From a virus (Duplodnaviria > Heunggongvirae > Uroviricota > Caudoviricetes), in IMG/VR virus record IMGVR_UViG_2713897073_000007: 21,533 nucleotides of DNA; one strand, 5' to 3'. Below the pieces are notes generated by a model. That model was not told the DNA's origin, made no database searches, and worked only from the letters and a program-made list of their open reading frames with translations. Positions 2,661 to 17,889 of the stretch are shown here, one piece after another; position 1 is the stretch's first letter; each line of letters starts with the position of its first letter. The position numbers were made by a program, and so were the translations under genes.

Positions 2661-2670
2661 CGCGGTTTCC

Positions 2671-3262: not shown

Positions 3263-3304
3263 AGCGACCTCCCTTAACGTGGTGCTGCCGCTATTCTAAG
3301 TTGC

Positions 3305-4414
3305 TCACTCTGTTTCCGCTATCCATTCCGGGATTTTTGCCTCAAGCTCAAGCTGCGTGGTAAAGCCGCTGTTATCAATGGTGTGCCCGGCTTTTGCAAT
3401 AATCCAGTCCTGATTATCAATCTCGCTTTTAAATCCTGTTACCGTGCCATGCATTTCGGGGTAGAGCTCTGCACGTCCACGCGCCAGCGTGATGGAGAAT
3501 GATGCGGCTCCGCGTTGTAGTTGCTGCCACTTTGCCGCCGCTGCGCGTCTTGCTGCCTGCTCGTTCTGATAAGTCTTGCGTAACACAAACACATTGCCTT
3601 CCGCGCCTTCCATATAATCACCTTCACGGCTGCTGCTTTTCTCCTTTTTGGGTTTTGGCGGTTTACGGCGTTTCACGCTGACTTTTTTCTTTTTCCCGTA
3701 ATTAAGATCAAGCCAGTAGGCGCGTACCCCCGTATACGCCTCGCGGTCAGCAATGCGGAACTGATGGCGATCGCCGCTGCTGCGTGTAATGGCGAACGAG
3801 GGCAACGGCTGGCCCTGTGCGTTCACGCCACCACCTGGCATGATGAATAACAGATTGCCGCTTTTTACCGTGGTGATTGCACCCAGCATTTCCGCCATGC
3901 GCGTAAGGAAGGACATGTCGCTTTCTTCGGTCTGGTCGGCGTGGTCGATTTCGATATCCATCAGCATTTCGCTGATTTGCGGTTTCAGACCATACCGATG
4001 AGCGATGGCGGATACCACACGCTCAACGGTCACATCATGCCAGGACACCTCACGTTTAACGTTAAATTCATCCCAAAAATCTGCGCTTCTGGCTGAAACA
4101 GTCAGCCTGTCCGGCGGTCCTTCGTGAGCGATTTCATCAACAATGTAAGTGCCTTTTTCTGTCAGCGGTTCTCCCTTCCAGCCAATGAGAACCGTCAGGC
4201 GCGCGCCCCGTGGCGGTAGCTGCAACTGACCATCCGCATCATCCAGCGTGATGGTGAGCTGGTCCGCCTCAAATCCCCGGTTGTCGGTCAGTGACAGGCT
4301 CATCAGGCGCTCTGCCACGCCTGACAGCGTTTTACCCTCCGCGAGAATATCAAAATCCGGCATTTTTACGGGGTCTGTGCCCTGACTGAGCAATTGCATG
4401 GTGGTGTCGGTCAT
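3305..4414 (-). CDS. D: P2 gpD-like tail protein (late control gene D family)
   Basis: ORF-track ORF 3305..4546. Protein has the conserved SLSLTDNRGFEADQL block, a central Lys-rich stretch (KKKKVSVKRRKPPKPKKEK) and C-terminal NSGFTTQLEL typical of gpD. Preferred start is the internal Met of MTDTTMQLLSQ (about 4414), preceded by GGGAGGGAG. Confidence 0.85.
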   Translation of the reverse strand: MTDTTMQLLSQGTDPVKMPDFDILAEGKTLSGVAERLMSLSLTDNRGFEADQLTITLDDADGQLQLPPRGARLTVLIGWKGEPLTEKGTYIVDEIAHEGPPDRLTVSARSADFWDEFNVKREVSWHDVTVERVVSAIAHRYGLKPQISEMLMDIEIDHADQTEESDMSFLTRMAEMLGAITTVKSGNLLFIMPGGGVNAQGQPLPSFAITRSSGDRHQFRIADREAYTGVRAYWLDLNYGKKKKVSVKRRKPPKPKKEKSSSREGDYMEGAEGNVFVLRKTYQNEQAARRAAAAKWQQLQRGAASFSITLARGRAELYPEMHGTVTGFKSEIDNQDWIIAKAGHTIDNSGFTTQLELEAKIPEWIAETE

Positions 4415-4571
4415 CTGCTCCCTCCCTGTGCGGCATGGTCGCATGTGCGTGCGGAGGGGGTTACTGCTTTTTGTTGTCGCCGTGGCGAGAGAACGGCGCA
4501 GGGGTGAGATTACGCGCGTGGTGGGTGATGATTGTTGCCGAATCATTTAACGGATACAAGGGGCTGAAGCT

Positions 4572-5756
4572 ATGAGTGAAACTCGTTTTCATGGTGCCCG
4601 TGTTACGGAAAATACCGACCTGGTAACAGCGATTAACGATGTTGATTCCAGCGTTATCGGTATCGTGGCAACGGCGGATGATGCGGACGCGAAGCTGTTC
4701 CCGCTGAACAAGCCCACACTGCTGACCCGCGTCAATGACGTGCTGGGAAAATGCGGGACAACGGGGACGCTTTATCGTGCGCTTAAGGCCATCGCAGACC
4801 AGGTGAGTACAAAGGTGATCGTCGTTCGCGTGGCTGAACACAAAGAAGAAGACGGAAAAACGCAGGATCAACTGGTTATCGGTGGTTCTGAATCTGACGG
4901 CAGCTATACGGGGATGTATGCGCTGCTTGTTGCAGAGCAGGATGAAAGCATCGGATACCGTCCGCGTATTCTGGCCGCGCCGGAGCTGGACACGGAGGCG
5001 GTAACAAAATCCCTGTGCGTGATTGCGGGTAAACTGCGCGCGTTTGTGTATGCCTCATGTCACGGCTGTAACACGATGGCTGAGGCGATTACCTACCGCC
5101 AGAAATTCAACGAACGTGAGGTGATGCTCTTATGGCCGGACTTCATCGCCTACAACCCGAAAAGTGGCAAAAACGAAACGTTCCCCGCGCCTGCCTATGC
5201 GTGCGGCCTTCGTGCGTACATTGACCATGAGCAGGGTTGGCACAAATCGCTGTCCAACGTTCCGGTTAAAAATGTGCTGGGGATGTCCAGGCATGTGTTC
5301 TGGTCGTTGCAGGCCGAAGACAGTGATGCCAACAGCCTCAACAACAAAGAAATCACGACCATTATTCGTCGCAACGGGTTCCGCTTCTGGGGCAACCGCA
5401 CACCGGAAACGAACGCCTACATCTTTGAGGTGTATACCCGAACCGCACAGGTGCTGGCTGATTCAATTGCGGAAGCGCAGTTTGAAACCATCGATAGTCC
5501 ACTGACGCCTGCGAACGTGAAGGATGTTATCAGTGCCATCAGGGCAAAACTGGATTCACTGGTGACTGCCGGGAAACTGATTGGGGCGTCGTGCTGGTAT
5601 GACGTGGTGGATAACAGCACCACGAATTTACGTCAGGGGCGTGTGCGTATTCGCTACAAATATACGCCCGTTCCTCCGCTGGAAGACATGGAGCTTTACC
5701 AGTCGTTTACTGATGAATTCTTTGGTCCCGCATTTGCGGTGCTGGGAGGTGCCTGA
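4572..5756 (+). CDS. FI: Contractile tail sheath protein (P2 gpFI family)
   Basis: 394 aa; N-terminal region ...ADDADAKLFPLNKPTLLT... aligns with recalled P2 FI (...ASDADAETFPLNKPVLIT...); SD AAGGGG upstream; followed immediately by the tube gene. Confidence 0.9.
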   Translation: MSETRFHGARVTENTDLVTAINDVDSSVIGIVATADDADAKLFPLNKPTLLTRVNDVLGKCGTTGTLYRALKAIADQVSTKVIVVRVAEHKEEDGKTQDQLVIGGSESDGSYTGMYALLVAEQDESIGYRPRILAAPELDTEAVTKSLCVIAGKLRAFVYASCHGCNTMAEAITYRQKFNEREVMLLWPDFIAYNPKSGKNETFPAPAYACGLRAYIDHEQGWHKSLSNVPVKNVLGMSRHVFWSLQAEDSDANSLNNKEITTIIRRNGFRFWGNRTPETNAYIFEVYTRTAQVLADSIAEAQFETIDSPLTPANVKDVISAIRAKLDSLVTAGKLIGASCWYDVVDNSTTNLRQGRVRIRYKYTPVPPLEDMELYQSFTDEFFGPAFAVLGGA

Positions 5757-6268
5757 TGGCTGTACCAAAACATCTTCGCTTTTTTACGCTGTTTGTGGAT
5801 GGTGAAAACGAAGTGGGTAAGGTGACGTCCGTCACCCTGCCTAAACTGACGCGCAAAACCGACAGCTACCGGGGTGGTGGCATGATGGGTGCGGTAAGTA
5901 TTGATCTCGGTCTGGACGACTCCGCGCTTGATGCGAGCTTTGTCATGGGGGGCGCAGTTCGTGAGCTGTTCCTTAAGTATGGCGGCACGATTGACGGCAC
6001 GCTACTGCGTTTTGCGGGTGAATACTACACCGATGCAGAAAGCGACCTGTATGAAGTCGAAATGCGCGGACGCGTGACGGAAATTGATATGGGGGAAGCC
6101 AAACAGGGCGAAGCCACATCACACACTTACGCCATTAAAAACACCTACTACAAGCTGAGTGTTAACGATCGTCCGTTGTGGGAGATTGACCTGCTGAACT
6201 TCATTTACCGGAAGGACGGCAAGGACATTGTGCCCGATCGCATCCGTTCCGCGCTTGGGCTTGGCTGA
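5756..6268 (+). CDS. FII: Tail tube protein (P2 gpFII family)
   Basis: 170 aa; start overlaps the FI stop (TGATG); position and size match FII; N-terminal pattern ...FVDGENEVGKVTSVTLPKLTRKTDSYRGGGM resembles recalled P2 FII. Confidence 0.85.
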   Translation: MAVPKHLRFFTLFVDGENEVGKVTSVTLPKLTRKTDSYRGGGMMGAVSIDLGLDDSALDASFVMGGAVRELFLKYGGTIDGTLLRFAGEYYTDAESDLYEVEMRGRVTEIDMGEAKQGEATSHTYAIKNTYYKLSVNDRPLWEIDLLNFIYRKDGKDIVPDRIRSALGLG

Positions 6269-6322
6269 TAAGTAATATGCAGGCGGCGCAGTGCGTCGCC
6301 TCTGACTGAAAGGAGTTTCCTG

Positions 6323-6688
6323 ATGAAAGAGACGAAAAACATCGATACCGAAAACACGGTAGTTGCTGACACTGTGAAAGAAACCAGTGAGCGTGGCGTA
6401 AAACTTACCCAACCAATTGAGCGAGGCGGCGAAAAAATCACGTATGTGGAGATCACCGGGGCTATTGAGCAGGCTGGATCTCTGCGAGATTTGTCGCTGT
6501 CTGATGTGCTGAATCTGAAAGCGGAATCCATGTTTACGCTGCTGTCACGAGTGACATCACCGCGACTGGATGAAGTGACGATCAAAAAAATGGCATCCCG
6601 TGACTTTATTCAGTTATGTGTGGTTGCCGTAAATTTTTTGAGCGGTGCGGACTCTGGCGGGAAGAACGAACAGGCGACGGAAGCCTGA
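6323..6688 (+). CDS. E: Tail assembly chaperone gpE (zero-frame product)
   Basis: 121-aa ORF between the tube and tape-measure genes; contains the T TTT TTG slippery heptamer in frame; synteny with P2 E. Confidence 0.8.
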   Translation: MKETKNIDTENTVVADTVKETSERGVKLTQPIERGGEKITYVEITGAIEQAGSLRDLSLSDVLNLKAESMFTLLSRVTSPRLDEVTIKKMASRDFIQLCVVAVNFLSGADSGGKNEQATEA

Positions 6689-6852
6689 TCACGGTTGTGT
6701 GCTTTGAGCACATAGAAGACTTTGTGGCAGATATTGCCGTTATTTTTAACTGGTCGCCCGCCGAAATCTTCATGATGACGCCCGGCGAAGTGGTTAGCTG
6801 GCGTGAGCGGGCGGCACTTCGCAGCGGGAATGCAGACAATGAAGACTCTTGA
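6323..6852 (+). CDS. E': gpE+E' fusion product made by programmed -1 ribosomal frameshift at 6634-6640
   Basis: ORF-track frame 6616..6852 is -1 relative to E and is closed by a TGA at 6601-6603, so it can only be entered by slippage downstream of that point. The heptamer T TTT TTG at 6634-6640 is in the correct zero-frame register. The E' frame ends by overlapping the tape-measure start. Confidence 0.7.
6634..6640 (+). other. Slippery heptamer T TTT TTG (programmed -1 frameshift site for E/E')
   Basis: Read directly; E-frame codons AAT TTT TTG (N F L), -1 frame codons TTT TTT GAG (F F E), matching both ORF-track translations (VNFLSGADS and KFFERCGLW). Confidence 0.7.
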
Positions 6853-9646
6853 TATCCGGGTCGCTTTCAGCGCCGTTGACAGGCTGACCCAGCCTGCCGA
6901 AAACGCCCGCCGCCTGATGGGGCAGTTTGGTGACTCCATCCAGCGAACGCAGGGGGCGATCAAAAATCTCGAGCGTCAGGCGCGTTCATTTGAGCGCGCC
7001 CGCGACGCTGTCAGTAAAGCGGATGCGGGTATCGTGAAAGCACGACGCCAGCTTAACGCCCTTAATCAGTTACAACGCACGGGTACAGTGCTCAGCGAAA
7101 AACAACAAAAGCTGATGCAGCAGTTAAGCACCCGGCTTGAACGCCTGAATGAATCGCGCACGCGGGAAATTCAGAAAATGCGGGAGCTTGGCGGAGAGCT
7201 GAAACGCCACGGCATTTCCCTGACAGGCAGCGATAACACCATCCAGCAGGCCATCAGACGCACCGAACAGTACAACAATCAGCTTGAACGCGAACGGCAG
7301 GCGCTTGCGCGTGTAACGCGGGCGCGTGAGCGGTATTCGCGCGCGCAGGAAACAGCGGGAAAACTGAAAACAGGTGGTGCACTGGCAATTGGTGCGGCAG
7401 CGGCGGGCGGCTATGCTGCCGGGCGTTTTTTGCAGCCTGCGATCGGGTTCGGGAAAGAGATGTCCCGCGTTCAGGCACTGACGCGAATCGACCAGAACAG
7501 CCCGCAGTTTAAGGCGCTGCGTGAGCAGGCGTTAAAACTTGGCTCTGAAACGCAGTTCACCGCAGGCGATGCCGCCAGTGGGCAGGCATTTCTGGCAATG
7601 GCTGGCTTCACACCGCAGGCCATTCAGGCTGCGCTTCCCGGCGTGCTGAGCATGGCAACGGCTGGCGGTATGGACCTTGGCGAGACGGCAGATATTGGCT
7701 CAAATATCCTGACGCAGTTCGGCCTCTCCGCTGACCAGATGGACCGGGTCGGTGACACGCTTACAGCAGTGTTTACCCGTACTAACACTGACCTTCGCGC
7801 ACTGGGCGAAACCATGAAATATGCAGGTCCGGTGGCGGGTAAGCTGGGAATATCGCTGGAGCAGGCCGCAGCGATGGCGGGCGTGCTGGCGAATATGGGT
7901 ATCAGAGGGAGTGATGCCGGGACGGCAATGCGTGCCAGCCTGGCTCGTCTGGCATCACCGCCAAAGGCGGCAGCAGAAGCGCTGAAAGAGCTGGGTGTGT
8001 CCGTCTCTGATGCGAACGGCAAAATGCGCCCGATGGAAGATGTGCTGGCCGACCTTTATAAAGCCACCCGTAAATACGGGGAAGTTGACCGGGTATCGTT
8101 CTTTAAGGACATTGCCGGGGAAGAGGCTTTCACGTCGTTTATGGCTCTCGTTGATGCGGCGGGTGACGGCTCCCTGCCCAAACTGAGAAAAGAACTTGAG
8201 GGCGCACGCGGTGAGGCTGAACGCACGGCAAAGGTTATGGCCAATAACCTTGATGGCGACCTGAAATCACTCGGCAGTGCATGGGAAGGGCTGCGTATCC
8301 GCATTGCAGATCTGATTGATGGTCCGCTGCGTTCTGTCACGCAGTGGCTCACGCGGGTGGTCTCAAAGGTGACGGCGCTGGCACAGGCCCATCCGGTACT
8401 GACGCGCCAGTTACTGATAGCAGGCGGTGCGCTGCTGGCAATGACTGCAACGGTTGGCTCGTTGTCGCTGGTTATTGGAGTGCTTCACGGGAAGCTGGCC
8501 ACGTTGCGTCTTGGTTTTTCTCTCCTGACCGGATCAATGAATGCTGTCAGGCTCCTGCCAGCACTATGGGGAATGGTGACGGGTTCCGTTTCGTTACTGG
8601 GGGGCGCTATCGGGGCGCTGTTCAGCCCGGTCGGATTGATTGCTGCTGCGTTTGTGGCTGCGGCAGTTCTCATCTGGAAATACTGGGAACCCATCAAGGC
8701 GTTTTATGCCGGGGTGTTCAGCGGGATTATGGAGCGGCTGGCCCCGTTACGCGAAACCTTTGAACGGTTTGGTCCTGTTTTTGACGCAATCGGAAGCGGG
8801 ATAAGTCAGGTGTTTAACTGGTTTAAATCGTTGCTGTCACCGATGGAGTCCAGCAAGGAAACGCTGGATAAATGTACCAGTGCTGGCGAGATATTCGGTA
8901 ACGTTCTTGGCGGTGCGTTACAGCTTGTTCTGACGCCCGCAAAAATGTTGCTGGATACGCTGGCGTGGATACTTGAAAAACTCGGTGTGCTTCCGGATGA
9001 AGCGGAAAGGGCGAGAAAGAAAATCGAAGACGCACAGCGTGCGGCCATTCTTCAGGACAAGGTTGCTCTGTTTCAGGGAGACATTGCGAAAATCAATCCG
9101 CCGAAGTCTGCGGAAAATGGCAATGGCACCGGAGGTGATAAACCCAAAGACAATAAACCGCTCACAGACAGCAATACCGGTACGCTACGCAGACTCAGCA
9201 AAATTGCTGATAACACAGGTAAGCTGGTTGATGAGACGAAAAAACGTATTGGCCCCGGCGATATTGTCTTTAAGAACCTGCCCCGCGCACTTGCCGTTCG
9301 TGGGGAGTGGCAGGAGCGGAAGATTGTGCAGGTCAGTAAGCCTGCCCCCGCAATTAATATCACACCCGTGGTCCCGGCTCCGCTGCCTCCGGCGCTGGTC
9401 CCTGTTGTTGCGGCCAGCTCCCGCCCGGTGGCGGAGGCCATACGATCTCCAGTGGCATCAGTTCCTGTAACTTCCCGTAACCGGGAGCCTGTTGCCTCCG
9501 GATTTGGTGGTGAAATTCATGTTCATCTGCATAACGTTGTTACGCAGAATCCCCGCGAACTGGCGAAACTGGTCGGTGAAATGGTCAGGGCAGAAATGGA
9601 ACGGCGCGCCCGTGCCGGGCGTGGCAGTTTTTACGATAAAGATTGA
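6803..9646 (+). CDS. T: Tail tape measure protein (P2 gpT family)
   Basis: 947-aa ORF; long N-terminal coiled-coil-like region, central hydrophobic segments (LLIAGGALLAMTATVGSLSLVIGVL...), Pro/Ala-rich C-terminus; located between E/E' and U. True start may be the in-frame ATG at 6830 or 6839, overlapping the E' stop. Confidence 0.9.
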   Translation: MSGRHFAAGMQTMKTLDIRVAFSAVDRLTQPAENARRLMGQFGDSIQRTQGAIKNLERQARSFERARDAVSKADAGIVKARRQLNALNQLQRTGTVLSEKQQKLMQQLSTRLERLNESRTREIQKMRELGGELKRHGISLTGSDNTIQQAIRRTEQYNNQLERERQALARVTRARERYSRAQETAGKLKTGGALAIGAAAAGGYAAGRFLQPAIGFGKEMSRVQALTRIDQNSPQFKALREQALKLGSETQFTAGDAASGQAFLAMAGFTPQAIQAALPGVLSMATAGGMDLGETADIGSNILTQFGLSADQMDRVGDTLTAVFTRTNTDLRALGETMKYAGPVAGKLGISLEQAAAMAGVLANMGIRGSDAGTAMRASLARLASPPKAAAEALKELGVSVSDANGKMRPMEDVLADLYKATRKYGEVDRVSFFKDIAGEEAFTSFMALVDAAGDGSLPKLRKELEGARGEAERTAKVMANNLDGDLKSLGSAWEGLRIRIADLIDGPLRSVTQWLTRVVSKVTALAQAHPVLTRQLLIAGGALLAMTATVGSLSLVIGVLHGKLATLRLGFSLLTGSMNAVRLLPALWGMVTGSVSLLGGAIGALFSPVGLIAAAFVAAAVLIWKYWEPIKAFYAGVFSGIMERLAPLRETFERFGPVFDAIGSGISQVFNWFKSLLSPMESSKETLDKCTSAGEIFGNVLGGALQLVLTPAKMLLDTLAWILEKLGVLPDEAERARKKIEDAQRAAILQDKVALFQGDIAKINPPKSAENGNGTGGDKPKDNKPLTDSNTGTLRRLSKIADNTGKLVDETKKRIGPGDIVFKNLPRALAVRGEWQERKIVQVSKPAPAINITPVVPAPLPPALVPVVAASSRPVAEAIRSPVASVPVTSRNREPVASGFGGEIHVHLHNVVTQNPRELAKLVGEMVRAEMERRARAGRGSFYDKD

Positions 9647-9652
9647 GGAGTC

Positions 9653-10147
9653 ATGGCCATGATGATGATCTACGGCATGTTTGTTTTTGAGCTGCGCACG
9701 CTGCCGCATCAGCAGTTACAGCAAAACAAAAGCTGGCGGCATGTGAAAAATGAACGCGTTAACCGTTCAGCAAGCTGGCAGTATATCGGTGCAGGTGATG
9801 ATCGCATCGTTCTTTCTGGTGTGCTTTATCCTGAAATTACAGGTGGCGAAGTGTCGCTGTCGCTGCTGACCACGCAGGCGTATACAGGACGACCCTGGCC
9901 TTTGATTGATGGCGTCGGGCAGATTTACGGCATGTATGTCCTGACCGGAACGAACACGACCCGTTCCGAGTTTGATCGCTACGGTAAGGCGAAAAAGATA
10001 GAATTTTCACTGACCCTTGAACGCTGTGATGAGGATTTGCGGGAGCGCCTGCAATCCTCATCGTTCAGCGATATGCTGTCCGGCTTCAAAGATAAAGTGA
10101 CATCATCCCTTAACAGCGCGGCCAGTTCAGTTAAAGGGCTGTTCTGA
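9653..10147 (+). CDS. U: Tail protein gpU
   Basis: 164 aa directly after T; N-terminal FVFELRTLPHQQLQQNKSWRH and LSGVLYPEITGG resemble recalled P2 U. Confidence 0.8.
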   Translation: MAMMMIYGMFVFELRTLPHQQLQQNKSWRHVKNERVNRSASWQYIGAGDDRIVLSGVLYPEITGGEVSLSLLTTQAYTGRPWPLIDGVGQIYGMYVLTGTNTTRSEFDRYGKAKKIEFSLTLERCDEDLRERLQSSSFSDMLSGFKDKVTSSLNSAASSVKGLF

Positions 10148-10159
10148 TTTAATGCTGGC

Positions 10160-10191
10160 CACTCATACCTGGTAATAAGTGGCCAGTCTTA
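10160..10191. repeat. 9-bp inverted repeat CTGGCCACT - 14 nt - AGTGGCCAG immediately 3' of U, at the transition from GC-normal phage DNA to AT-rich cargo
   Basis: Read from sequence; could be a terminator for the late tail operon or a remnant of a recombination site. Confidence 0.3.
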
Positions 10192-10309
10192 ACACTCACC
10201 ATTTGATTGCACCCGCGTTAACGATTTGTTACTGGGTATCAGACATGCTGGATAGCCAGTAGAAACATACCATTAAAATTATTACAATAATTGGTCACAT
10301 GATTATCTT

Positions 10310-10795
10310 ATGCTGAATAATAGAGATATGAATATTAATGAACTTAAAGACTGTATTCACTATGAAGTAATCGGTAGCGAGCGTCCTTTCTCCTGGCGAA
10401 AGGCAATTGTTCGCGCAATAAAACATAGAAGACTTCGTTATTTATTTTGGTGGCGCATAGCCAAATACCTTTTTGATAAAGGCGGATACTGCCGGAAGAT
10501 TGCGGGGAAAATAGAACGTTTCATTCTTGATAAATATAATGTAACAGTCCCTTTAACTGTAAATATAGGGAAAGGCTTTGATATTTCTTATCTCAACAGT
10601 GTTGTTATCGGTCACAAAGTAACAATCGGTGAAAATTGTTCAATAAAACCGGGGGTAACTATTGGGCTACGTGGTGATTTTAATGATATGGATATTGTTA
10701 TAGGACATAATGTGACCATTGGTTGTAATGCCACCATTCTTGGTGGCAAAGTGCGTATAGGAAACAATGTCACAATAGGTGCTCATGCATTGGTA
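10310..10795 (+). pseudogene. 3'-truncated hexapeptide-repeat (left-handed beta-helix) acyltransferase, AT-rich cargo gene
   Basis: Tandem hexapeptide repeats VTIGENCSIKPGVTIG / IVIGHNVTIGCNATILGGKVRIGNNVTIGAHALV; the last 23 aa of the ORF (TTTFKNFKESLTITSFFRIVAVK) are the reverse-strand reading of the tail-fibre fragment, so the gene is cut at about 10795. Confidence 0.6.
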
Positions 10796-11290
10796 ACCAC
10801 CACCTTCAAGAACTTCAAGGAGTCCCTGACCATAACTTCCTTCTTCCGGATAGTTGCGGTCAAATGAAGCGATTGAGCCACTACTGTTTCGCCATAAACC
10901 AAGATGCTCTGCGCCTCCGAGCGTGTTCAGGTCAATGGTTGTGCTCAGGGGGCGTGTTGCAGACTGAACCTGACGCCAGTAACTCCACGGACCGTCTGAA
11001 CCATTCCATGTGCCAGAAAGGTTGCGCATATAAACATTGCCTGTTCTGGTGGTGTAACGCTGCATTCCTGCAAAATTACCGCCATTGAATACCTCCAGTA
11101 CACCGACTGCACCGTCTTCAGGGAAATTTTTAGCAGCCGTCGCGTTAGTGGATGTAGCTTTAGACCAGACGCCAAGATAAGCCTTAACGGGACCAAATGT
11201 ATTCAAGTCAGCATCAAGCGGCATTTCGCCATTGTTTTTCATAAACGTCAGGCTGGTAACGCCAACATTGTCCAGAAAAGCGCCCTTATC
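10796..11290 (-). pseudogene. Internal fragment of a phage tail fibre gene (gpH-like), truncated at both ends
   Basis: ORF-track ORF 10667..11242 with its frame open upstream to about 11290. Gly/Asn/Thr/Ser-rich fibre-like sequence (GVLEVFNGGNFAGMQRYTTRTGNVYMRNLSGTWNGSDGPWSYW...GQGLLEVLEGGGY). The final 40 aa are an antisense read of the acyltransferase DNA. Family assignment is by composition and synteny only. Confidence 0.45.
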
Positions 11291-11835
11291 TCCACGCGTT
11301 GCACACCGTGCACATGCAGTGCGGCAGCAATGGCGGACAACGCCACGTCCTGACCGATAAGCCCCTGCTCAGCCAGCCACTTCCTGAACGACGATTCAGC
11401 CGCAGCCAGAATAGGTTCGGATTCCGGGCCGGGATAAAAGTACAGTTTTGCATTCAGCCGCCATGTCACGATTCTGGCGCTCTGTACGGTCAGGCGGTCG
11501 GCCACCGGGCGGGTATCCTCTGCATTCAGAACGGCACGAACGGTATTAAGCAACGCCTCCGTTGCTGTGCCGTCGCCTTCAGTGGACAGGATGGAAACCG
11601 TCACACAGGCCGGAGACGGGCTGATGGCCCGCGCATCACGCACCAGACCGCTGGCGCTGCGTGCAAAATACTCGTATGCACCTGACGGGCCAGCAACACT
11701 CAGGCCGTCGTACGCCCGCTGCGCCCGCAGTCTCAGCGAGGTGTCGCTCTCCATCACCGCGTCGGTGGTATCCGTTGCCGGAGTGATAACCAGGCGCTTT
11801 GTGTTCATATTGCCCGCGAGGTTGTCCAGGTCTGT
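11248..11835 (-). pseudogene. J: Baseplate protein gpJ fragment lacking the N-terminal third and probably the C-terminal end
   Basis: ORF 11248..11886; the segment TKRLVITPATDTTDAVMESDTSLRLRAQRAYDGLSVAGPSGAYEY...SPSPACVTVSILS...RPVADRLTVQSA...YFYPGPESEPI...LHVHGVQRVEI matches recalled P2 J residues from about 100 to 270. The first 17 codons of the ORF are an out-of-frame read of capsid-gene DNA. Confidence 0.65.
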
Positions 11836-12463
11836 CATCCAGCAGGGATGAGCGCGCGTCCTGTACCAGTGCATCAGCGTTCGCATACTTACCCGCGTGC
11901 GCCACTGTGTTGTCCATGTTGCGGGAAGTCAGCGTCACGTCATTCATTACGCGTTCACTGGCATCGGTTCTGATGTGCTCCAGCCAGCCCACGTTAACGT
12001 CCTGAAGCAGCTTGTTGGTGCTGAAATTGGATTTTTCCGCGTGTGATGTGCCGTTAAAGCCGATCATGATGCGGTCAAGCGCCACCTGCCGGGCAATCTG
12101 TGTGCTGATGCGCGACTGAAAATCGCTGTGAGCCGCCCAGGCATCAAGCTTCGGGTATGAAATAAACGTGTCGTAGTTCACCTGTTCACACTGGTACTGA
12201 CGAGCCTTCATATCGACAGCGTTAATCGGATTACGGCGATCTGTGCCGTCATAACTGGTATTCGTGCGCGCAATCGGCCCGGTGGTGTCCAGGAGAACTT
12301 TTTCGCCTTTCTGGTCAGTTACACCGATTACATTAATTCTTTTCGTAAATTCGGTACTTTCCTTTGAAGCGTTTTCAAAACGCTGTTGTACCGATGGATT
12401 GACGGTAAATCGCGATACCAGCGCAGAAACCGGGATATTGTTAAGCGACGCCTGCTGCGTCAT
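11836..12463 (-). pseudogene. N: Major capsid protein gpN fragment (N-terminal about 210 aa)
   Basis: ORF 11636..12463; FTVNPSVQQ...RINVIGVTDQKGEKV...YQCEQVNYDTFISYPKLDAWA...IMIGFNG...LLQDVNVGWLEHIR...ADALVQDA matches recalled P2 N N-terminal region. Homology stops near 11836, after which the frame reads J-fragment DNA. Confidence 0.65.
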
Positions 12464-12508
12464 GTAGCAGCCCAGCTTGTTACGGGCATTAATTACTCAG
12501 GGGGAGCA

Positions 12509-13765
12509 ATGATTCAGGACGCTTTTGTGCGCCAGCGTGCGCGGCAACTTTACTGGCAGGGTTATCCGCCCGCAGAAATATCACGTCTGATGGGAATAAA
12601 CCCGAACACGATTTATGCGTGGAAAAAACGCGACCAGTGGGATGAAACGCCCCCCGTGCAGCGTGTCACGCAGTCCATCGATGCGCGCCTCATCCAGCTT
12701 ACTGAAAAACAGAATAAAACAGGCGGTGACTTTAAGGAAATAGACCTGCTGACCCGGCAGCTTAAAAAGCTGCATGATGGCCAGCCGGATGTGATGGCCG
12801 CAGGAAAGAAAGGCCGGGCGAAAAAACTTAAAAATCATTTCACGCCGGAACAGATTGCCGCACTGCGGGAAAAAATCATCAGCAGGCTGGAGTGGCATCA
12901 GCGGGGCTGGTTTGACTCCCTGACACTTTGCAGGGAAGCCGGGATACGTAACAGGATGATCCTGAAATCCCGACAGATTGGGGCGACCTGGTATTTTGCA
13001 CAGGAAGCTCTGCTGATGGCGCTGCGTGACGATGTGGCGCAACCTTACCAGCGTAACCAGATTTTTTTGTCTGCGTCGCGTCGTCAGGCGTTCCAGTTTA
13101 AAAGCATTATTCAGAAGGTCGCGGCTGAAGTTGATGTGGAGCTGAAAGGGGGCGATAAAATCATCCTCTCCAACGGCGCAGAGCTGCATTTTCTCGGCAC
13201 TTCTGCTGCGTCGGCACAGTCCTATACGGGCAATTTTTATTTTGATGAATTTTTCTGGGTCAGTCGCTTTGCTGAACTGCGCAAGGTGGCTGGCGCTATG
13301 GCAACCCTCAGCGGACTGCGGCGCACCTACTTCTCCACGCCATCCACCGAAACGCACGAGGCGTACGCCTACTGGAACGGCGACCGCTGGAACGAGAAAA
13401 AGGCCTCGCATAAACGCCAGCGTTTTTCTGTGGACTGGAAAACGCTGCATAACGGGCTTATCTGCCCTGACCGGACTTGGCGGCAAATTGTCACGCTGGA
13501 AGATGTGGTTAATCACGGCTGGAAACACACCGATATCGACGAAATTCGTGATGAAAACACCGAAGACGAGTTCCTCAATCTCTATATGTGTGAGTTTGTC
13601 CGCGAAGGGGAATCGGCATTTAACCTGAATATCCTGATTGGCTGCGGTGTTGACGGATACGACGACTGGAAAGACTGGAAACCTTTTGCTCCCCGCCCGA
13701 TGGGGAATCGTCCGGTATGGATTGGGTATGACGCAAACGGCAGCAGTGGCAACGGCGACACCGTG
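12509..13765 (+). pseudogene. P: Terminase ATPase (large) subunit, P2 gpP family, 3'-truncated
   Basis: ORF 12386..13840; preferred start MIQDAF at 12509 with SD GGGGGAG; Walker-A-like KSRQIGATWYFAQEA; the last roughly 25 aa (RMPYQRRPSRFSFLRTAAKNELTR) are an antisense read of the gpA fragment. Family size is about 590 aa, so roughly 170 C-terminal residues are missing. Confidence 0.7.
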
Positions 13766-15042
13766 CGGATGCCATACCAGCGCAGGCCGTCGCGGTTCAG
13801 TTTCTTGCGGACCGCCGCAAAAAACGAGTTAACCAGGTAATCGCTGGAGTCGCGCATAGTGGCCCCGTTCCATTTGGGATTCGGATGACCGTTCTCCGTT
13901 GTTGCGTGGTATTTTGACGGGCAGGTGACAGTCAGAAACACCGCTCTGTCGCCACGGGCTTCGGCCAGAAGTTCCAGCCCCTTCATGGTGGCCATCATTT
14001 CTGCCTTACGGTGAACCGGGTTACTTACTCCCGCGTAATACACTGTCTCAAGATCAATCGTGAACCCGTCTTCGTTTTCCAGCATGAAACTTTTCAGGAA
14101 ATCGCGTGTTTTCTCGCGCTGTGCGCGAAACTCGCTTAACGCATCCTGGCTCAGATAGGGCGATGTTTTTCTGGAAACCAGACAGGCGGCGCGGAGTTGT
14201 TCTTCTCTCCACTCGCAACGTAACAGCCACAGTTTGCGTTTCCACCATTCCGCACAGGTCAGGCGAAGGATTGCGCCCGGCAGCAGCTCCGTGTCTGGTT
14301 CGTTCCTCCGGCCTTTGTCTGTTGTCAGTGCGTCATAATGCGGAGGCATGGCGTGCAGGTGTAACGCCATGCGGGCCAGCATCTGATACGCCTTCAGCGT
14401 TACATCCATGGTCAGCTCGCCATCAGTCGCACCAAAGCCATCGCAGAGTTTTTCGAAGGTGCTGCTGAACATCGCCGCCGTCATGGTGGCCAGCGTCTGT
14501 ATCTGGTGTTTGTTGAGCTGCGGCAGGTAAAGCAAATCGTCCAGGCGTTCGCGTCCGGCAAGGGAGCGATAACCCGGTGTCAGCCAGTGTCCGTCAGTGC
14601 GATCCAGACGTTCGAATATTTTGCGCAGGGTTCCGCGTGCATAGCGTTCTGCCTGCCAGCTCTTTTTGCCTTTCCGGCGATCGACTTCCTGTTTTTTGCG
14701 CAGGAAGGAGAGGTGGCGAATAAGCGGATCGCGCAGATAGGACGGCAGCAGGCGCAGCGAGGCCATGGCTTCATCCACCGCGCCGCGTGCCTGTCTTCTG
14801 GCGTCTCCTGCCAGCGTGATGGTTTTGTCCTGTTTTTCCTGTGCGTCCAGGCTTTTATTAATCAGGTTGCCCAGTGGCGTGGCAGAGAACGCCGCATCAG
14901 CCTTTTCCTGTCGGCGCTCGTTCTCTGCCTGGTAGGCATCCAGCCAGGAGGAAAGCGCGGATTCAGGTGCGGGGATCCCCGTTCCTTCACGCCCCACTGC
15001 GTGGCGCGGTTGTTGCCAGTCCCTGATGTACTCTGTCGTCAT
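13759..15042 (-). pseudogene. A: Replication initiation protein gpA family (rolling-circle initiator), 3'-truncated after about 428 aa
   Basis: ORF 13582..15042 directly downstream of the early operon; sequence up to ...GLRWYGIRTV is protein-like, the following 58 aa are Pro/Ser-rich antisense of terminase DNA. P2 A is about 760 aa. Convergent with the P fragment. Confidence 0.65.
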
Positions 15043-15048
15043 ACTGAT

Positions 15049-15414
15049 TTACTGCGTCATACCGTTCAGGGTGTCACGGCAAACGGCAGCCAGCCGCTGA
15101 ATTTCCAGCACGGTGTCTTCTGTGTCGGCATAGCGATGTGTGATGCGGATGCTGTCGGCAATCACATCGACGATTGCAGAGGATGGGCGCTGGTAAATGC
15201 CAATAACGGACGGAGTGCCACCTTCAATGCGGTAAAGCCTGTAATTTCCCTCGTGGCTGTCAATCATGTAGCGACCATCAATAACAATCTTTCCGTCAGC
15301 GAGCTGCGGTACAGGCAGGGATTTCAGGTACATGTCATAACGTTCACGCACGCGAACGGCAAGATCACGCTCTGTGTTGAGCAGGTATTCAAGAAAGTCG
15401 TTGGCGAGAATCAT
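15049..15414 (-). CDS. Hypothetical early-operon protein (121 aa), immediately upstream of the A fragment
   Basis: ORF-track ORF; position corresponds to the orf83-like slot before gene A in P2-family early operons; no recognisable motif. Confidence 0.5.
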   Translation of the reverse strand: MILANDFLEYLLNTERDLAVRVRERYDMYLKSLPVPQLADGKIVIDGRYMIDSHEGNYRLYRIEGGTPSVIGIYQRPSSAIVDVIADSIRITHRYADTEDTVLEIQRLAAVCRDTLNGMTQ

Positions 15415-15486
15415 TGCGGCAATCCTCTTGTTACAGATGTGCGAAGGCCTCCTGCCGCAAGGTGCAGGAAAGGCCCGGAACAGGAA

Positions 15487-15717
15487 TTAATGGAGTTTGT
15501 TTTGCTGCTGGATGAGCTGCTGAAGCTCGCGCAGATCATCCGCCAGATAACTGAAAACAGCGGATGAGTAGAGGTTTGAAAGTTCGCAGCTACGCTCATG
15601 CAGCATATTGATGTGCATGATTTTAGCGACGCGGAATGCGCGGGAAAGTCTGCGGTTGATTTCAGTCTGGATGTGACGACGCTCCGCGATAGCGCGGTGC
15701 TGTTTGCGGTTTGCCAT
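15487..15717 (-). CDS. Hypothetical small basic protein (76 aa)
   Basis: ORF-track ORF; Arg/Lys-rich N-terminus (MANRKQHRAIAERRHIQTEINRRLSRAFR) suggests nucleic-acid binding; function unassigned. Confidence 0.4.
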   Translation of the reverse strand: MANRKQHRAIAERRHIQTEINRRLSRAFRVAKIMHINMLHERSCELSNLYSSAVFSYLADDLRELQQLIQQQNKLH

Positions 15718-15896
15718 GGTGTGGCCTCTTTGGTTGTAAGTTTTGAAAACTCACCATCCAGAGCTGCGAAACTGTGGGTGGCGAGACGTACGGGGTTCGC
15801 AGTACCGGCAACCAAAGAACCCGGCCCGACCGAAGTCGGCCCCGTACGCCCCGCCATAATTCTGACGCGAAAAAAACGTGGCAATACAGTACGCAC

Positions 15897-15917
15897 AAAA
15901 AAACCGCTGGCGCGGTT
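15897..15917 (-). terminator. Hairpin ACCGC-NNNN-GCGGT followed by a T7 run on the minus strand
   Basis: Read from sequence (plus strand shows A7 then ACCGCTGGCGCGGTT); lies in the 367-bp non-coding gap between the SPFH module and the 76-aa gene. Confidence 0.4.
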
Positions 15918-16053
15918 GTGCGCTTTGGTTGTCAGCAGGCTGCGAAACCCGGCACCCGTTTTATGAGGTGCAGCGAAAATGTAACCTGACTGATTGCGGC
16001 ATGGCAAGCGGTTTTTTTGTGAGAACGGCATACTAAAAAATCCTGATACTGCT

Positions 16054-16078
16054 CCGGCCAGCGGTTTGCACTGGCCGG
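16054..16078 (-). terminator. 8-bp inverted repeat CCGGCCAG - 9 nt - CTGGCCGG starting 7 nt after the SPFH lipoprotein stop
   Basis: Read from sequence; a T6 run follows on the minus strand only after a 13-nt spacer, so intrinsic-terminator function is uncertain. Confidence 0.35.
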
Positions 16079-16084
16079 GTGTCA

Positions 16085-16915
16085 TTACTTCACGGGAACG
16101 AACGGAACAGCGGTGTTACTGGTCATGTATTGCGGCAGCGTGCCGTTCCATTTGTTGATTGCTTCCAGCTCCATAACGCCGGGATTCTGGCGCAGAGCTT
16201 CGCCGCGTAAACGAATGGCGTCGGCTTCAGCCTGGGCTTTTGTGCGAATGGCATCGGCCTGTCCGGCAGCTTCTGCGCGCAACATGTTGGCTTCTGCTTC
16301 GCGTTGCTTGACTTCCTGTTCGCGTTGCAGGGTTTTCTGGTTTGCCGTGACTTTGGCGTTAATGCTGTCGATAACGGTTGGCGGATATTCCGGTTTACCG
16401 ACATAAGAGAGGCTCATGACCTGAATACCGATGGGGGTCATCTCTTCCTGAATATCTTTAAGTGCTGAATCCAGCAGTTCAGACTTACCACCGTCGATAA
16501 ACTTATCGGTGGTCATTTTGCTGGCCAGTCGGTTGAGTGCATCGGCGATCTTCTGGCGCAGGTCAGTGTCGGTAATGTCGTCCACGCCTTTGCGGTAGGT
16601 CTGAAACACCGTGGTAACTTTGGATGGATCAACTTTGTAGGCCACGCCGATGTGATAGCCGATGGTTGTGCCGTCACTCATCTGGAAGTTGAACGGCTCA
16701 TCGTAACTCTTCATTTGTTTGAAGGTCGGGAAGATGTAAACCTCTGTATTCCAGCCTGTCCAGTAGCGGCCAACGCCAACCACTTCACCGACGCCTTTGT
16801 CGTCGCCCAGTTTGTTGACTTTGATGCCCACATTACCTGGCTCAACGCGATCGCAACCAACCAGCAGGATGGCGGCAAAAAGCGGGAGAATCTGAAAGAG
16901 TCTGAATTTCTTCAT
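16085..16915 (-). CDS. SPFH/band-7 (stomatin-prohibitin-like) domain lipoprotein
   Basis: 276 aa; signal peptide with lipobox (LLVGC); central band-7-like region; C-terminal Ala/Glu/Gln-rich coiled coil (QREQEVKQREAEANMLRAEAAGQADAIRTKAQAEADAIRLRGEALRQN). Start overlaps the upstream gene stop (ATGA). Confidence 0.75.
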   Translation of the reverse strand: MKKFRLFQILPLFAAILLVGCDRVEPGNVGIKVNKLGDDKGVGEVVGVGRYWTGWNTEVYIFPTFKQMKSYDEPFNFQMSDGTTIGYHIGVAYKVDPSKVTTVFQTYRKGVDDITDTDLRQKIADALNRLASKMTTDKFIDGGKSELLDSALKDIQEEMTPIGIQVMSLSYVGKPEYPPTVIDSINAKVTANQKTLQREQEVKQREAEANMLRAEAAGQADAIRTKAQAEADAIRLRGEALRQNPGVMELEAINKWNGTLPQYMTSNTAVPFVPVK

Positions 16916-17115
16916 TGTTTGATTTCCTTGATGTACTTACTGAAAAGGCGAACAACGCCTGCCGGGTACAGCATGGCAATGAAAATTCCCAGCAATACCA
17001 GGAAGGAGCTGTCTGATGAAATCATTCGGGGGAGTAGTCCTGCATACAGAATGAGAGAGACGAGGACGCATACCAGCGCCCACATGTATGCGCGAAACCA
17101 GGTCTTTTTGTTCAT
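16912..17115 (-). CDS. Small membrane protein (67 aa, two predicted transmembrane helices), translationally coupled to the SPFH lipoprotein
   Basis: Hydrophobic segments WALVCVLVSLILYAGLL and FLVLLGIFIAMLYPAGVV; 4-nt overlap with the downstream start. Confidence 0.6.
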   Translation of the reverse strand: MNKKTWFRAYMWALVCVLVSLILYAGLLPRMISSDSSFLVLLGIFIAMLYPAGVVRLFSKYIKEIKQ

Positions 17116-17126
17116 ATCGCGGTCCT

Positions 17127-17426
17127 TTACTGGTTAAGGAAAAAATCGAAAACGTTGTCGATGCGTTGCAGCGGCTCCTGCTGCATTGCTTCCGGCGTTT
17201 CTGATTCACCTGGTGACTCCAGCGTCGCGCAAAAATCCTTGATTTCATGATGGAGCGTCAGACGAATGGCAGGAGCCATGGTTCTGGCGTGCTCCAGCTC
17301 ATCCAGCAGTGCCAGCACGGCAGATGGCGAGAGCATTGCGCGAAACGCCAGTAATTTTTGATGCGTTGCCATTCGTTGCAGGTCAGTCGCCAGTTCGCGT
17401 AATTCCTGGTGGTTGATGGCGCTCAT
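17127..17426 (-). CDS. Hypothetical early-operon protein (99 aa, acidic C-terminus)
   Basis: ORF-track ORF; ATGA overlap with the upstream gene; no recognisable motif. Confidence 0.5.
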   Translation of the reverse strand: MSAINHQELRELATDLQRMATHQKLLAFRAMLSPSAVLALLDELEHARTMAPAIRLTLHHEIKDFCATLESPGESETPEAMQQEPLQRIDNVFDFFLNQ

Positions 17427-17689
17427 GCTCTGGCTTCCTTCAGTAGCAGGTTAAACATGTGAGTAAGTGGATTGCTACACCCGAACGGCATCGGGTTTAC
17501 GTGGTAAGAAGCCTGGCCTCCTGCTTTGCGAGCGCGACCACCTGTGCTGCGGTTTGTTCTGATGACTAAGCCGCCGCGCCAGAGTCGGCGTAACTCAGCA
17601 TTGATGGCTGTGGTTGGGGTATTCAGTGCTGCGGCGATTTCTCCGCCGCTACAACCCGGATGGGTAGCGATGTAGTCCAGAATGGTCAT
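17423..17689 (-). CDS. Small winged-helix-like DNA-binding protein (88 aa)
   Basis: MTILDYIATHPGCSGGEIAAALNTPTTAINAELRRLWRGGLVIR resembles a helix-turn-helix/wing pattern; coupled overlaps on both sides. Confidence 0.5.
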   Translation of the reverse strand: MTILDYIATHPGCSGGEIAAALNTPTTAINAELRRLWRGGLVIRTNRSTGGRARKAGGQASYHVNPMPFGCSNPLTHMFNLLLKEARA

Positions 17690-17889
17690 CTGCGTGACTC
17701 CTGTACCTGTCGGATAAGGTTCACCCGCACCACATTCGTGGCGCAGAAGTAAGTGCCGTCAGTGAGATAGATGTGATGTGCATCCTTTTCCGAACGATGT
17801 TTGTCGATAGTGGTAATCAGTCGTTCGTCGACCTCGTATTCGCGGTCTCTGGAGGTGAAGCGAACGACAGGAAAATGCTTAATTGCCAT
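17686..17889 (-). CDS. Hypothetical early-operon protein (67 aa)
   Basis: ORF-track ORF; overlaps neighbouring genes by 1-4 nt. Confidence 0.45.
   Translation of the reverse strand: MAIKHFPVVRFTSRDREYEVDERLITTIDKHRSEKDAHHIYLTDGTYFCATNVVRVNLIRQVQESRR

Follow-up and report, generated by a model that had tools for sequence, protein, structure and literature searches.

A deletion-truncated hexapeptide acetyltransferase gene in a decaying P88-like prophage of Escherichia coli

The overall explanation that we consider likely for the gene that ends at position 10795 of the window (the whole stretch of 21,533 nucleotides of viral DNA that was analysed) is that a deletion has damaged a copy of a prophage moron consisting of a single gene, which would encode a WcaB/CysE-like hexapeptide acetyltransferase of PHROG 2154. 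The truncation almost certainly derives from a deletion, since the sequences on both sides of the break were 100% identical to one intact prophage, in which they lie 2,167 bp apart. The feature is an ordinary product of prophage decay, and in itself adds another scar to a P88-like element that is decaying. The features of the region, all in window coordinates, were as follows.

9653 to 10147, plus strand: tail gene gpU, which ends the FI-U operon (Pfam Phage_P2_GpU, E = 1.5e-38)
10148 to 10327, plus strand: AT-rich spacer 5' of the acetyltransferase gene (GC 37.2%)
10328 to 10795, plus strand: acetyltransferase gene, native part up to codon 156 of 181, encoding a helical N-terminal domain and then hexapeptide coils
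10793 to 10795: deletion junction with GTA microhomology, from comparison with both L002 sides
10796 to 10867, plus strand: foreign tail of 23 codons (TTTFKNFKESLTITSFFRIVAVK) and a stop, antisense to the fibre fragment, in place of the conserved LHDIPDDSTFITKFQSEVICSSSRT
10796 to 11291, minus strand: internal fragment of tail-fibre gene H, approximately residues 218-383 of an 885-residue fibre, both ends absent
11286 to 11836, minus strand: fragment of baseplate gene J (Pfam Baseplate_J, E = 1.6e-19)

The deletion junction and the chimeric reading frame

An intact gene, which the earlier note had proposed to seek in related prophages, was found in an E. coli prophage in NZ_CP024232 (locus L002, 9229-9774), where it encodes 181 residues and is arranged tail-to-tail with G, the gene for fibre assembly. 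The native part of the window gene was 100% identical to L002 9229-9696. Identity ended at base 10795, beyond which the sequence was unrelated, so the cut that had been placed at about 10795 was exact. The next segment, 10796-11291, was 100% identical to L002 11864-12359, which lies within the fibre gene on the opposite strand. Measured against an L002-type prophage, the deletion corresponds to L002 9697-11863 and removed codons 157-181 of the acetyltransferase gene (its last 25), all of the gene for tail-fibre assembly and 1.5 kb from the 3' end of the fibre gene.

As a result of the deletion, codon 156 is joined to the antisense of the internal fibre fragment, giving a chimeric open reading frame of 179 codons. 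The plus-strand frame reads 72 nt of fibre antisense before its stop at 10867, and the minus-strand frame (10667-11242) reads 129 nt of acetyltransferase antisense; the head-on meeting with a truncated fibre gene and the mutual antisense run-on that had been described from the letters were both confirmed. The loss amounts to 25 of 181 codons (14%), leaving 86% of the protein intact, and for this reason the earlier term "remnant" overstates the damage. The gene had been taken to begin at 10310, where an ATG is indeed present as an alternative start. The second ATG, at 10328, is the likelier one; it is the choice of PGAP and a near-universal start among the homologues.

The junction was found in nine of 5,426 complete genomes. 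In public contigs the chimeric protein (WP_244443963, 179 aa) was represented 19 times, compared to 743 times for the intact protein (WP_001418511, 181 aa). RefSeq lists the chimeric frame as an ordinary, intact CDS under the name "serine acetyltransferase", for which the sequence gives no support. The junction-bearing genomes were identical over the whole query, so the persistence of the junction reflects recent common descent and not selection. In two of the nine, IS1 was also inserted in the acetyltransferase gene, and independent IS1 insertions were found to have hit the gene in other lineages.

The gene is AT-rich, as had been observed previously: the GC content of the native part was 37.6%, and that of gpU, the fibre fragment and the entire window was 50.7%, 49.4% and 50.8%, respectively. 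An inverted-repeat search of the spacer revealed a hairpin with 18-nt arms at 10149-10192, directly 3' of the gpU stop codon. Weak sigma-70-like sites were located at 10260-10288 and 10292-10321; the number of promoter-like sites (five, compared to 2.4 expected) is no more than suggestive of a promoter.

The host prophage and the fibre cassette

As judged by sequence comparison, the host element is a P88-like prophage (Xuanwuvirus, P2 family) of E. coli with at least four internal deletions. The region 2630-10152 was collinear with P88 35109-27595 at 96.9% identity, rising to 99.2% over 9900-10152, and P88 homology stopped at 10152. Phage P88 natively has gene D on the minus strand followed by FI to U on the plus strand, and 1,370 of 5,426 complete E. 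coli genomes contain this junction; what the earlier note had taken for an inversion is this native arrangement and not a rearrangement. An inversion that broke gene D was also suspected, as PGAP annotates a D of 266 aa next to a pseudogene, and was ruled out by the 97% P88 collinearity that runs from D through the divergent promoter gap into FI, and by the occurrence of the same order in the 1,370 genomes. No convincing inverted repeats that could have served as inversion end-points were found flanking FI-U.

Downstream of the junction, the fibre fragment derives from the L002 gene at 10355-13012, matched phrog_4618 (tail collar fiber protein, E = 5e-27) and is called a pseudogene in RefSeq ("pyocin knob domain-containing protein"). 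The J fragment corresponded to P88 21947-21397 at 97.6% identity, and the block that follows it leaps to P88 15841. A second deletion joins the J fragment to the fibre fragment and a third joins J to a capsid-gene fragment; within the window, four further homology jumps relative to P88 were detected. The genes adjoining the acetyltransferase gene are annotated as pseudogenes. The J/capsid junction was found in none of the complete genomes, the closest of which share only the acetyltransferase/fibre and fibre/J junctions.

In intact relatives the acetyltransferase gene and tfa are on opposite strands and share 37 nt at the 3' end of tfa; an overlap of the acetyltransferase gene with a tfa gene was seen in 58 of 60 sampled genomes. 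The region L002 9141-10987 was 92-95% identical to sequences in P1-like phage-plasmids and in a 47-kb phage-plasmid, and 83% identical to another myovirus; the gene also adjoins StfR/Tfa in a lambdoid prophage. The final 70-90 nt or so of the spacer were retained in all copies, homology beginning at window position 10240 for the P1-like copies and at 10259 for locus L007. By these comparisons, the acetyltransferase gene, tfa and the fibre tip form a mobile cassette carried by at least five phage backbones. Homologues with 37-53% identity in phages yong2, phiNP and JL22 are likewise convergent with a tfa gene. More distant homologues were found elsewhere, beside an integrase gene or as lone chromosomal genes, so the linkage to fibre genes is not universal and may merely mirror a favoured insertion site. 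The gene was present in 183 of 5,426 complete E. coli genomes (approximately 3%).

In P88 the slot between U and G holds an invertible fibre segment (an alternative tfa' and fibre tip) together with a DNA invertase, as deduced from annotation and crossover-like sites; the content of this slot varies, the acetyltransferase gene being present there in the window lineage. The invertible segments of Mu (G/gin), P1 (C/cin), P88 and e14/Rac/Qin (pin) lie, like the acetyltransferase gene, past the expressed tfa gene in convergent orientation, and the cassette would occupy the place where P88, P1 and lambdoid prophages keep such a segment. An invertase remnant adjoins the acetyltransferase gene in three loci; a C-terminal invertase remnant lies 5' of the gene in L007, and "HTH" pseudogenes are found there in L020 and L021. 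The P1-like JL22 has a 37%-identical homologue within an invertible segment that is still intact, as is its cin gene, and that contains inverted repeats of 602 nt and cix-like cores. Invertase crossover-like sites were present in P88 and JL22, which served as positive controls, and were not found in L002; the window lineage has no invertase, alternative fibre set or crossover-like site, its fibre being fixed. The cassette probably arose from an invertible segment that lost most of its invertase together with the alternative fibre genes.

The earlier note had likened the location to the P2 Z/fun cargo site. In intact relatives the slot does lie just past G, and the gene is convergent with G, AT-rich and non-essential, as is fun(Z). 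The two sites differ at the other boundary, where the neighbour is gpU and not FI as in P2, owing to the native P88 order, and in that the P88 slot is that of the invertible segment. The acetyltransferase gene has no homology to fun(Z). Z/fun is a recognised variable or defence site of P2-like phages (PMC13586616); unlike cargo that is swapped within that one hotspot, the acetyltransferase gene travels with the fibre tip between unrelated phages.

Family, active site and activity of the encoded protein

Pfam Hexapep (PF00132) matched both the window frame and the intact protein (47.7 bits against a cut-off of 27, E = 9.2e-13), and in a search of the PDB serine acetyltransferases (SATs) were matched with E values down to 5.6e-12, in agreement with the tandem hexapeptide repeats of acyltransferase type that had been recognised earlier. 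Residues 1-180 of the intact protein aligned with positions 4-184 of the 185-position profile phrog_2154 (E = 3.3e-78), a phage protein family of unknown function of which the window copy retains residues 1-156. The nearest NCBIfam models were EpsC, CysE and WcaB, all of which scored well under their cut-offs; for the intact protein the EpsC model NF041874 gave 81.2 bits against 150, and the WcaB models TIGR04016 and NF007564 gave 59.9 against 194.65 and 62 against 196, respectively. The family has the domain order of WcaB and CysE/EpsC, that is, a short helical N-terminal domain, hexapeptide coils and a V-x-x-D-V/I-P C-terminal motif. It differs from them in its scores (60-81 bits against cut-offs of 150-210) and in its Tyr/Thr active site, and its gene context is that of a prophage moron, not of a wca or cys locus.

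In the E. coli SAT the catalytic residues are Asp143 and His158, and serine is bound by Arg192 and His193, as known from the E. coli and Haemophilus influenzae SAT structures. HMMER alignments to the SATs of the PDB placed Thr and Tyr at the catalytic Asp and His positions and Met-Asp at the serine-binding Arg-His pair, which the window family therefore lacks. With Thr/Tyr in place of the catalytic Asp/His, the sequence lends no support to the name "serine acetyltransferase" given in RefSeq. The position equivalent to SAT His158, which falls in the IHH motif of WcaB, is Tyr (ISY) in the subclade to which the gene belongs and is retained as His in distant homologues. This Tyr, which is residue 85 in PGAP numbering, was shared by phage yong2, P0007-P0015 and the E. 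coli cassette. It was considered as a marker of fibre-linked copies and was ruled out as such, because the fibre-linked homologues of phiNP and JL22 retain His. Some members of the subclade have an extra His nearby (VIGHK, VIGHN). With these Tyr and Thr substitutions the enzyme may use other chemistry or may be no acetyltransferase.

An AlphaFold2 monomer, predicted from a 24-sequence alignment, had a mean pLDDT of 72, with values above 90 in the helical domain, 58-71 in the beta-helix and below 50 at the C-terminus. The beta-helix and C-terminus (pLDDT 43-67) were modelled too poorly to reveal the contacts of the lost segment. When this model was compared with the PDB using Foldseek there were no significant matches, the top match being a serine acetyltransferase (E = 0.25).

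The intact homologues (177-208 aa) all extend approximately 25 residues beyond the break; none ends naturally near residue 162, a circumstance that the earlier note had named as evidence against truncation. The lost segment contains the invariant Pro161 and a motif, D-I/V-P-x-N/D-S-x-Y/F, that was conserved among 24-27 homologues down to 24-30% identity, and it was identical in all cassette copies. The dN/dS of the intact gene was 0.04-0.16, at dS values up to 0.68, indicating strong purifying selection. Given the conservation of the lost segment and the selection on the intact gene, the window copy is most probably an inactive pseudogene. The alternative, that the 179-residue chimera is still active and that its 23-residue tail substitutes for the native C-terminus, is improbable. 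The chimera does retain the helical domain and most of the hexapeptide coils, its frame is open and listed as an ordinary CDS, and it is unchanged across the nine complete genomes. These genomes share recent common descent, however, and two of them carry IS1 in the gene, while the prophage around it is decaying; the chimera also lacks the one invariant Pro and the deeply conserved motif, in a segment that is under strong purifying selection in the intact gene.

Possible functions of the intact gene

For the ancestral function we tentatively favour the acetylation of an envelope glycan, a reading suggested by the linkage to fibre genes, the moron features of the gene and published precedents, to which we give somewhat less than an even chance. 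The intact enzyme would be expressed in the lysogen from its own promoter, as suggested by the AT-rich composition and by an orientation that opposes the late fibre operon. It would O-acetylate an envelope glycan or a lipid-linked precursor, such as O-antigen, LPS, ECA or colanic acid, and so alter the surface met by phages, with lysogenic conversion or receptor masking as the outcome. By analogy with NeuO, which is encoded by prophage CUS-3 of E. coli K1, lysogenic conversion is plausible. Both genes are prophage-borne single genes for hexapeptide (left-handed beta-helix) acetyltransferases; NeuO is encoded beside a tailspike gene. NeuO is a lysogenic-conversion factor: it O-acetylates the K1 capsule, changes a phage receptor and increases resistance to phages (PMC3046976, PMC13001214). 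The two proteins belong to different branches: NeuO is of the LacA/NodL type with a His/Trp active site, whereas the window gene is WcaB/CysE-like with a helical N-terminal domain. NeuO was absent from the PDB matches of the window gene's protein at E ≤ 0.001, and there were no 5' heptanucleotide or other tandem repeats of the kind used in NeuO-type phase variation in 10100-10900. Prophage acetyltransferases are common in Klebsiella and have been proposed to modify surface sugars (PMC13123978). In the P1-like phage-plasmid JL22 the equivalent position is occupied by the 37%-identical sacF, a serine acetyltransferase gene whose role was stated to be unknown (PMC9603915).

A more specific proposal, which we consider unlikely as a whole, is that the phrog_2154 enzyme acetylates the very envelope sugar that is recognised by the co-transferred fibre tip, making the cassette a portable host-range and receptor-masking module with a non-canonical active site in the Tyr-for-His subclade. 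The fibre-tip/tfa/acetyltransferase cassette would then lie inside, or replace, the invertible segments of P2-like, P1-like, Mu-like and lambdoid phages, the window holding a dead copy. If the enzyme does mask the receptor of its own fibre, this would explain how host-range modules and self-exclusion come to spread jointly, and could affect serotyping and the prediction of host range in phage therapy.

Other functions were weighed against glycan acetylation. That the intact gene encodes a true serine O-acetyltransferase, an auxiliary metabolic gene supplying O-acetylserine for cysteine synthesis or CysB induction, is very improbable: serine acetyltransferases head the NCBIfam and PDB matches and the names in public records agree, but the intact protein scored only 70.7 bits against 210.65 with TIGR01172 and 44.5 against 397 with PRK11132 (NF008349), both the catalytic and the serine-binding residues are replaced, and SATase_N had no match in a Pfam scan at E ≤ 0.01, a shorter helical N-terminal domain of approximately 75 residues being predicted by AlphaFold2 instead. 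There is a small chance that the gene acts inside the cell, as an anti-phage or counter-defence factor or as an acetyltransferase of small molecules (a xenobiotic or toxin), and is not directed at a glycan. This would suit an AT-rich single-gene moron found in variable slots that are rich in defence genes, of which the P2 Z/fun locus is one (PMC13586616), and also its occurrence on its own in a chromosomal island that has no polysaccharide genes close by. The models Vat, CatB and Maa were matched weakly, which points in the same direction, but these matches span generic hexapeptide coils only and scored 20-30 bits against cut-offs of 300-475. Neither the intact nor the window protein matched any PADLOC family at E ≤ 0.01, which leaves the earlier suggestion of a defence-gene remnant unsupported, and the repeated placement of the gene against tfa in many phage lineages fits a link to adsorption better than one to defence. 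No acetyltransferase is named in the P2/P4 hotspot papers or in an E. coli functional-selection paper.

The Tyr at the His position, when His is kept by WcaB and the distant relatives, also raises the reading that the subclade consists of non-catalytic beta-helix proteins, such as a regulator or a structural partner. We regard this as rather improbable, in view of the conservation of the remaining acetyl-CoA-binding-type beta-helix and of the C-terminal motif, a dN/dS as low as that of an enzyme, and two other His residues nearby in part of the subclade. Some hexapeptide acyltransferases function without a catalytic base.

Apart from the scar in the window, the phrog_2154 family, of which glycan acetylation is the function that we favour, is a reasonable small lead: it is uncharacterised, is present in approximately 3% of E. 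coli genomes under strong purifying selection, and recurs beside tail-fibre assembly genes of unrelated phages. A comparable case would be the sopE moron cassette of Salmonella phages (Mirold et al. 2001), in which cargo in the fibre region reportedly moves with flanking fibre sequences between unrelated phage families; there the cargo is a type III effector in a different host, and here it is an acetyltransferase.

A truncated acetyltransferase gene beside the tail-fibre fragment

The gene under study lies in a P2-family E. coli prophage adjoining flk/yfcJ, in a region that is identical in NZ_CP029981 and eight further complete genomes, most of them from ETEC isolates. Across approximately 10150-10800 the GC content falls from 50-60% to 37%.

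Features around the truncated gene (window coordinates)
6803-9646: tape measure
9653-10147: gpU
10310-10867, plus strand: 185-aa ORF (acetyltransferase, chimeric)
10667-11242, minus strand: 191-aa ORF (fibre fragment plus acetyltransferase antisense)
11248-11886, minus strand: Baseplate_J fragment

The plus-strand ORF at 10310-10867 encodes hexapeptide repeats (Pfam Hexapep, E = 9.2e-13). Its best NCBIfam models were EpsC, CysE and WcaB, with every score far under the cut-off, and its nearest relatives of solved structure are serine acetyltransferases. By these matches and the drop in GC content, the AT-rich hexapeptide-repeat gene that the earlier note had described is a real observation, far beyond chance. 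The ORF does open at 10310, where that note began it; position 10328, the PGAP start and the point at which most homologues begin, is the likelier start codon. A hairpin with 18-nt arms (TTAATGCTGGCCACTCAT / ATAAGTGGCCAGTCTTAA) is present at 10149-10192, directly after the gpU stop, where homology to phage P88 (genus Xuanwuvirus) ends; no T-run follows it and it is therefore not a typical intrinsic terminator.

An intact copy of the gene (181 aa, WP_001418511) was found in a related prophage, between gpU and the tail-fibre assembly gene tfa, in NZ_CP024232 (locus L002, 9229-9774). Identity between the window and L002 is 100% from before the gpU stop to base 10795, where alignment breaks off, while window 10796-11291 matches L002 11864-12359 at 100%, within an 885-aa fibre gene on the opposite strand. 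Since identity resumes in this way, the difference from an L002-type prophage is, on alignment, a single 2,167-bp deletion (L002 9697-11863), with 3 nt of GTA microhomology at the junction. Lost with the deletion were the final 25 acetyltransferase codons, the whole of tfa (P2 gene G) and 1.5 kb at the 3' end of the fibre gene. Past the junction the acetyltransferase frame reads on for 23 codons in fibre antisense before stopping at 10867, and the fibre frame for 43 codons in acetyltransferase antisense, as far as 10667. These boundaries agree with the cut proposed earlier at about 10795 against a truncated fibre gene, and with the proposed antisense run-on of each ORF into the other.

Consequences of the truncation and possible function of the intact protein

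Homologues at 24-99% identity are 177-208 aa in length. All run on for approximately 25 residues past the break, and this stretch, lost here, contains a Pro found in every one of them along with a conserved D-I/V-P-x-N/D-S-x-Y/F motif. Because all of them extend past the break with this motif, a natural end near residue 162 was seen in no homologue and the truncation stands. Eight cassette copies with the gene intact, drawn from five phage backbones, all encode 181 aa; dN/dS among them was 0.04-0.16, with dS reaching 0.68, and none differed in the C-terminal LHDIPDDSTFITKF. Public contigs with the intact protein numbered 743 and those with the chimeric protein 19. The copy in the window is, to judge by conservation, probably a pseudogene. 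The AF2 monomer model was too weak in its beta-helix and C-terminus to show the role of the lost segment. In other ETEC genomes IS1 is inserted in the same gene, both in the truncated allele (NZ_LR882973, NZ_CM173935) and in the full-length allele (NZ_LR883050, NZ_CM180507-14), so the gene has been knocked out on more than one independent occasion.

The RefSeq name, serine acetyltransferase, failed every test applied (model scores, catalytic residues and SATase_N). Scores were at most a third of the cut-off for CysE and WcaB and about half of it for EpsC; the positions aligned with the catalytic Asp/His are Thr/Tyr, and those aligned with the serine-binding Arg/His are Met/Asp; no SATase_N domain was found in the Pfam scan. 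At codon 85 (window 10580-10582, start 10328), this Tyr stands in the alignment where serine acetyltransferases and WcaB have their catalytic His. It is shared by the E. coli cassette, relatives at 54-75% identity and Hafnia phage yong2 (alignments A2 and A4), a subclade still under purifying selection; His is kept in phiNP, JL22, ESSI2_ev015 and chromosomal relatives.

PADLOC gave no match for the protein, and its family, PHROG 2154, is labelled 'unknown function'. Escherichia phage JL22 carries a 37%-identical homologue, sacF, in the same position. The role of this JL22 serine acetyltransferase gene was stated to be unknown in a paper on P1-like phage-plasmids (PMC9603915). The WcaB-like architecture, moron features (AT-rich, own orientation), linkage to fibre genes, and the precedents of NeuO of CUS-3 (PMC3046976, PMC13001214) and Klebsiella prophage acetyltransferases (PMC13123978) suggest as the best reading, at a little under even chances, that the intact protein might O-acetylate an envelope glycan or its lipid-linked precursor in lysogens, changing phage adsorption. 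The feature in the window is an ordinary decay product, a probably dead copy of a prophage-borne hexapeptide acetyltransferase moron, which is an already known kind. The sole lead of wider interest is an uncharacterised family that nests recurrently in tail-fibre cassettes and invertible segments.

The G-U interval and a travelling tail-fibre cassette

The earlier note had placed the gene at the P2 Z/fun cargo hotspot. Like P2 fun(Z), it is convergent with G and lies just beyond it, so the comparison is fair as an analogy; the hotspot itself was wrong. In P88 the G-U interval is occupied by a DNA invertase together with alternative versions of tfa (tfa') and of the fibre tip, with crossover-like AAACCNNGGTTT cores inside the fibre gene and beside the invertase, and is therefore an invertible host-range segment. 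In the acetyltransferase lineage the interval contains only the acetyltransferase gene, P88 homology stops 5 nt past the gpU stop, and no crossover-like site remains.

A stretch of approximately 1.85 kb (L002 9141-10987) is common to several unrelated backbones; besides the acetyltransferase gene and about 90 nt upstream of it, it takes in tfa and the final ~630 nt of the fibre gene. It is present in P1-like phage-plasmids (95%), where it replaces the C segment and cin, in 47-kb phage-plasmids and phage vB_EcoM-613R2 (92%), in another myovirus prophage (83%) and, beyond StfR/Tfa, in a lambdoid prophage. Upstream of the gene in the 47-kb phage-plasmid/vB_EcoM-613R2 copy are 91 nt of the Xuanwuvirus gpU 3' end (L004 6910-7000, L009 30-120), and the plasmid copy therefore came from a Xuanwuvirus. 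Of 60 genomes sampled across the ranking, 58 have the gene overlapping a tfa gene. At the DNA level the fibre tip and first two-thirds of tfa (L002 9738-10987) resemble two gene pairs of E. coli K-12-type prophages, stfR/tfaR of Rac and stfQ/tfaQ of Qin, at 84-89% identity, and these are found in thousands of genomes. The final ~220 nt of tfa, which share a 37-nt overlap with the acetyltransferase gene, are specific to the acetyltransferase-linked allele. The convergent arrangement with tfa recurs for homologues (37-53% identity) in Hafnia phage yong2, Citrobacter phage phiNP and P1-like JL22, and more distant His-containing relatives lie beside an integrase or are lone chromosomal genes.

Just upstream of the acetyltransferase gene at another cassette locus (L007 7862-7984, opposite strand), 41 residues match the P88 invertase C-terminus, at 46% identity to residues 143-183 (the C-terminal helix-turn-helix, Pin/Cin-type). 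Pseudogenes annotated as 'helix-turn-helix' occupy the same position at two further loci (L020 6416-6544, L021 5416-5544). This fits a cassette derived from an invertible segment. Unlike the acetyltransferase lineage, with no crossover-like site, JL22 has its homologue (sacF, 5022-5498) within a P1-type invertible C segment that appears intact (L030 2327-7790), with 602-nt inverted repeats (99% complementarity), two cix-like cores (2332 and 7774) and an intact cin (1773-2333). There sacF points the same way as the alternative S'/U' set and is convergent with tfa, so inversion would bring it to a position downstream of the fibre genes being expressed. In the most economical history, the acetyltransferase gene may have settled between an invertible segment's two convergent tfa genes; the segment would then have lost its alternative fibre genes and the greater part of its invertase, leaving a fixed cassette that would have spread through recombination in fibre genes.

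Decay of the surrounding prophage

In outline the earlier interpretation held, as did the observation; the inversion that it invoked did not. The order ogr(-) D(-) / FI FII E T U(+) is native to P88, D is unbroken, and the D/FI junction is present in 1,370 of 5,426 complete E. coli genomes and also in isolated phages. Collinearity with P88 spans window 2630-10152, at 96.9% identity, and the P88-matching blocks run hok-ogr-D-FI..U, J fragment, capsid N fragment, terminase fragment, then gpA and early genes. Homology to P88 jumps at 11286 (fibre/J), 11835 (J/capsid), ~12490 and ~13760 (terminase/gpA).

Prophage junctions within window 2630-19224
near 11286-11291
11835-11836
12486-12490
13759-13767

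By this comparison the whole prophage is a decaying P88-like (Xuanwuvirus) element with several internal deletions. The J/capsid junction was found in no complete E. coli genome of the collection, and the window is therefore more decayed than its nearest relatives.

RefSeq/PGAP annotates gene D (3305-4414, minus strand) as a 266-aa 'VgrG/Pvc8 family' protein with a tiny pseudogene beside it. The ORF is open for ~369 codons from the ATG at 4414, matches Phage_GPD and is collinear with the 366-aa P88 D gene (33333-34433); this looks like start-site mis-annotation, not truncation. A VasI/TagO-like fragment and a zinc-ribbon gene lie between flk and the prophage (1875-2538), and a hok/gef toxin gene and ogr are at the prophage end (~2670-3260).
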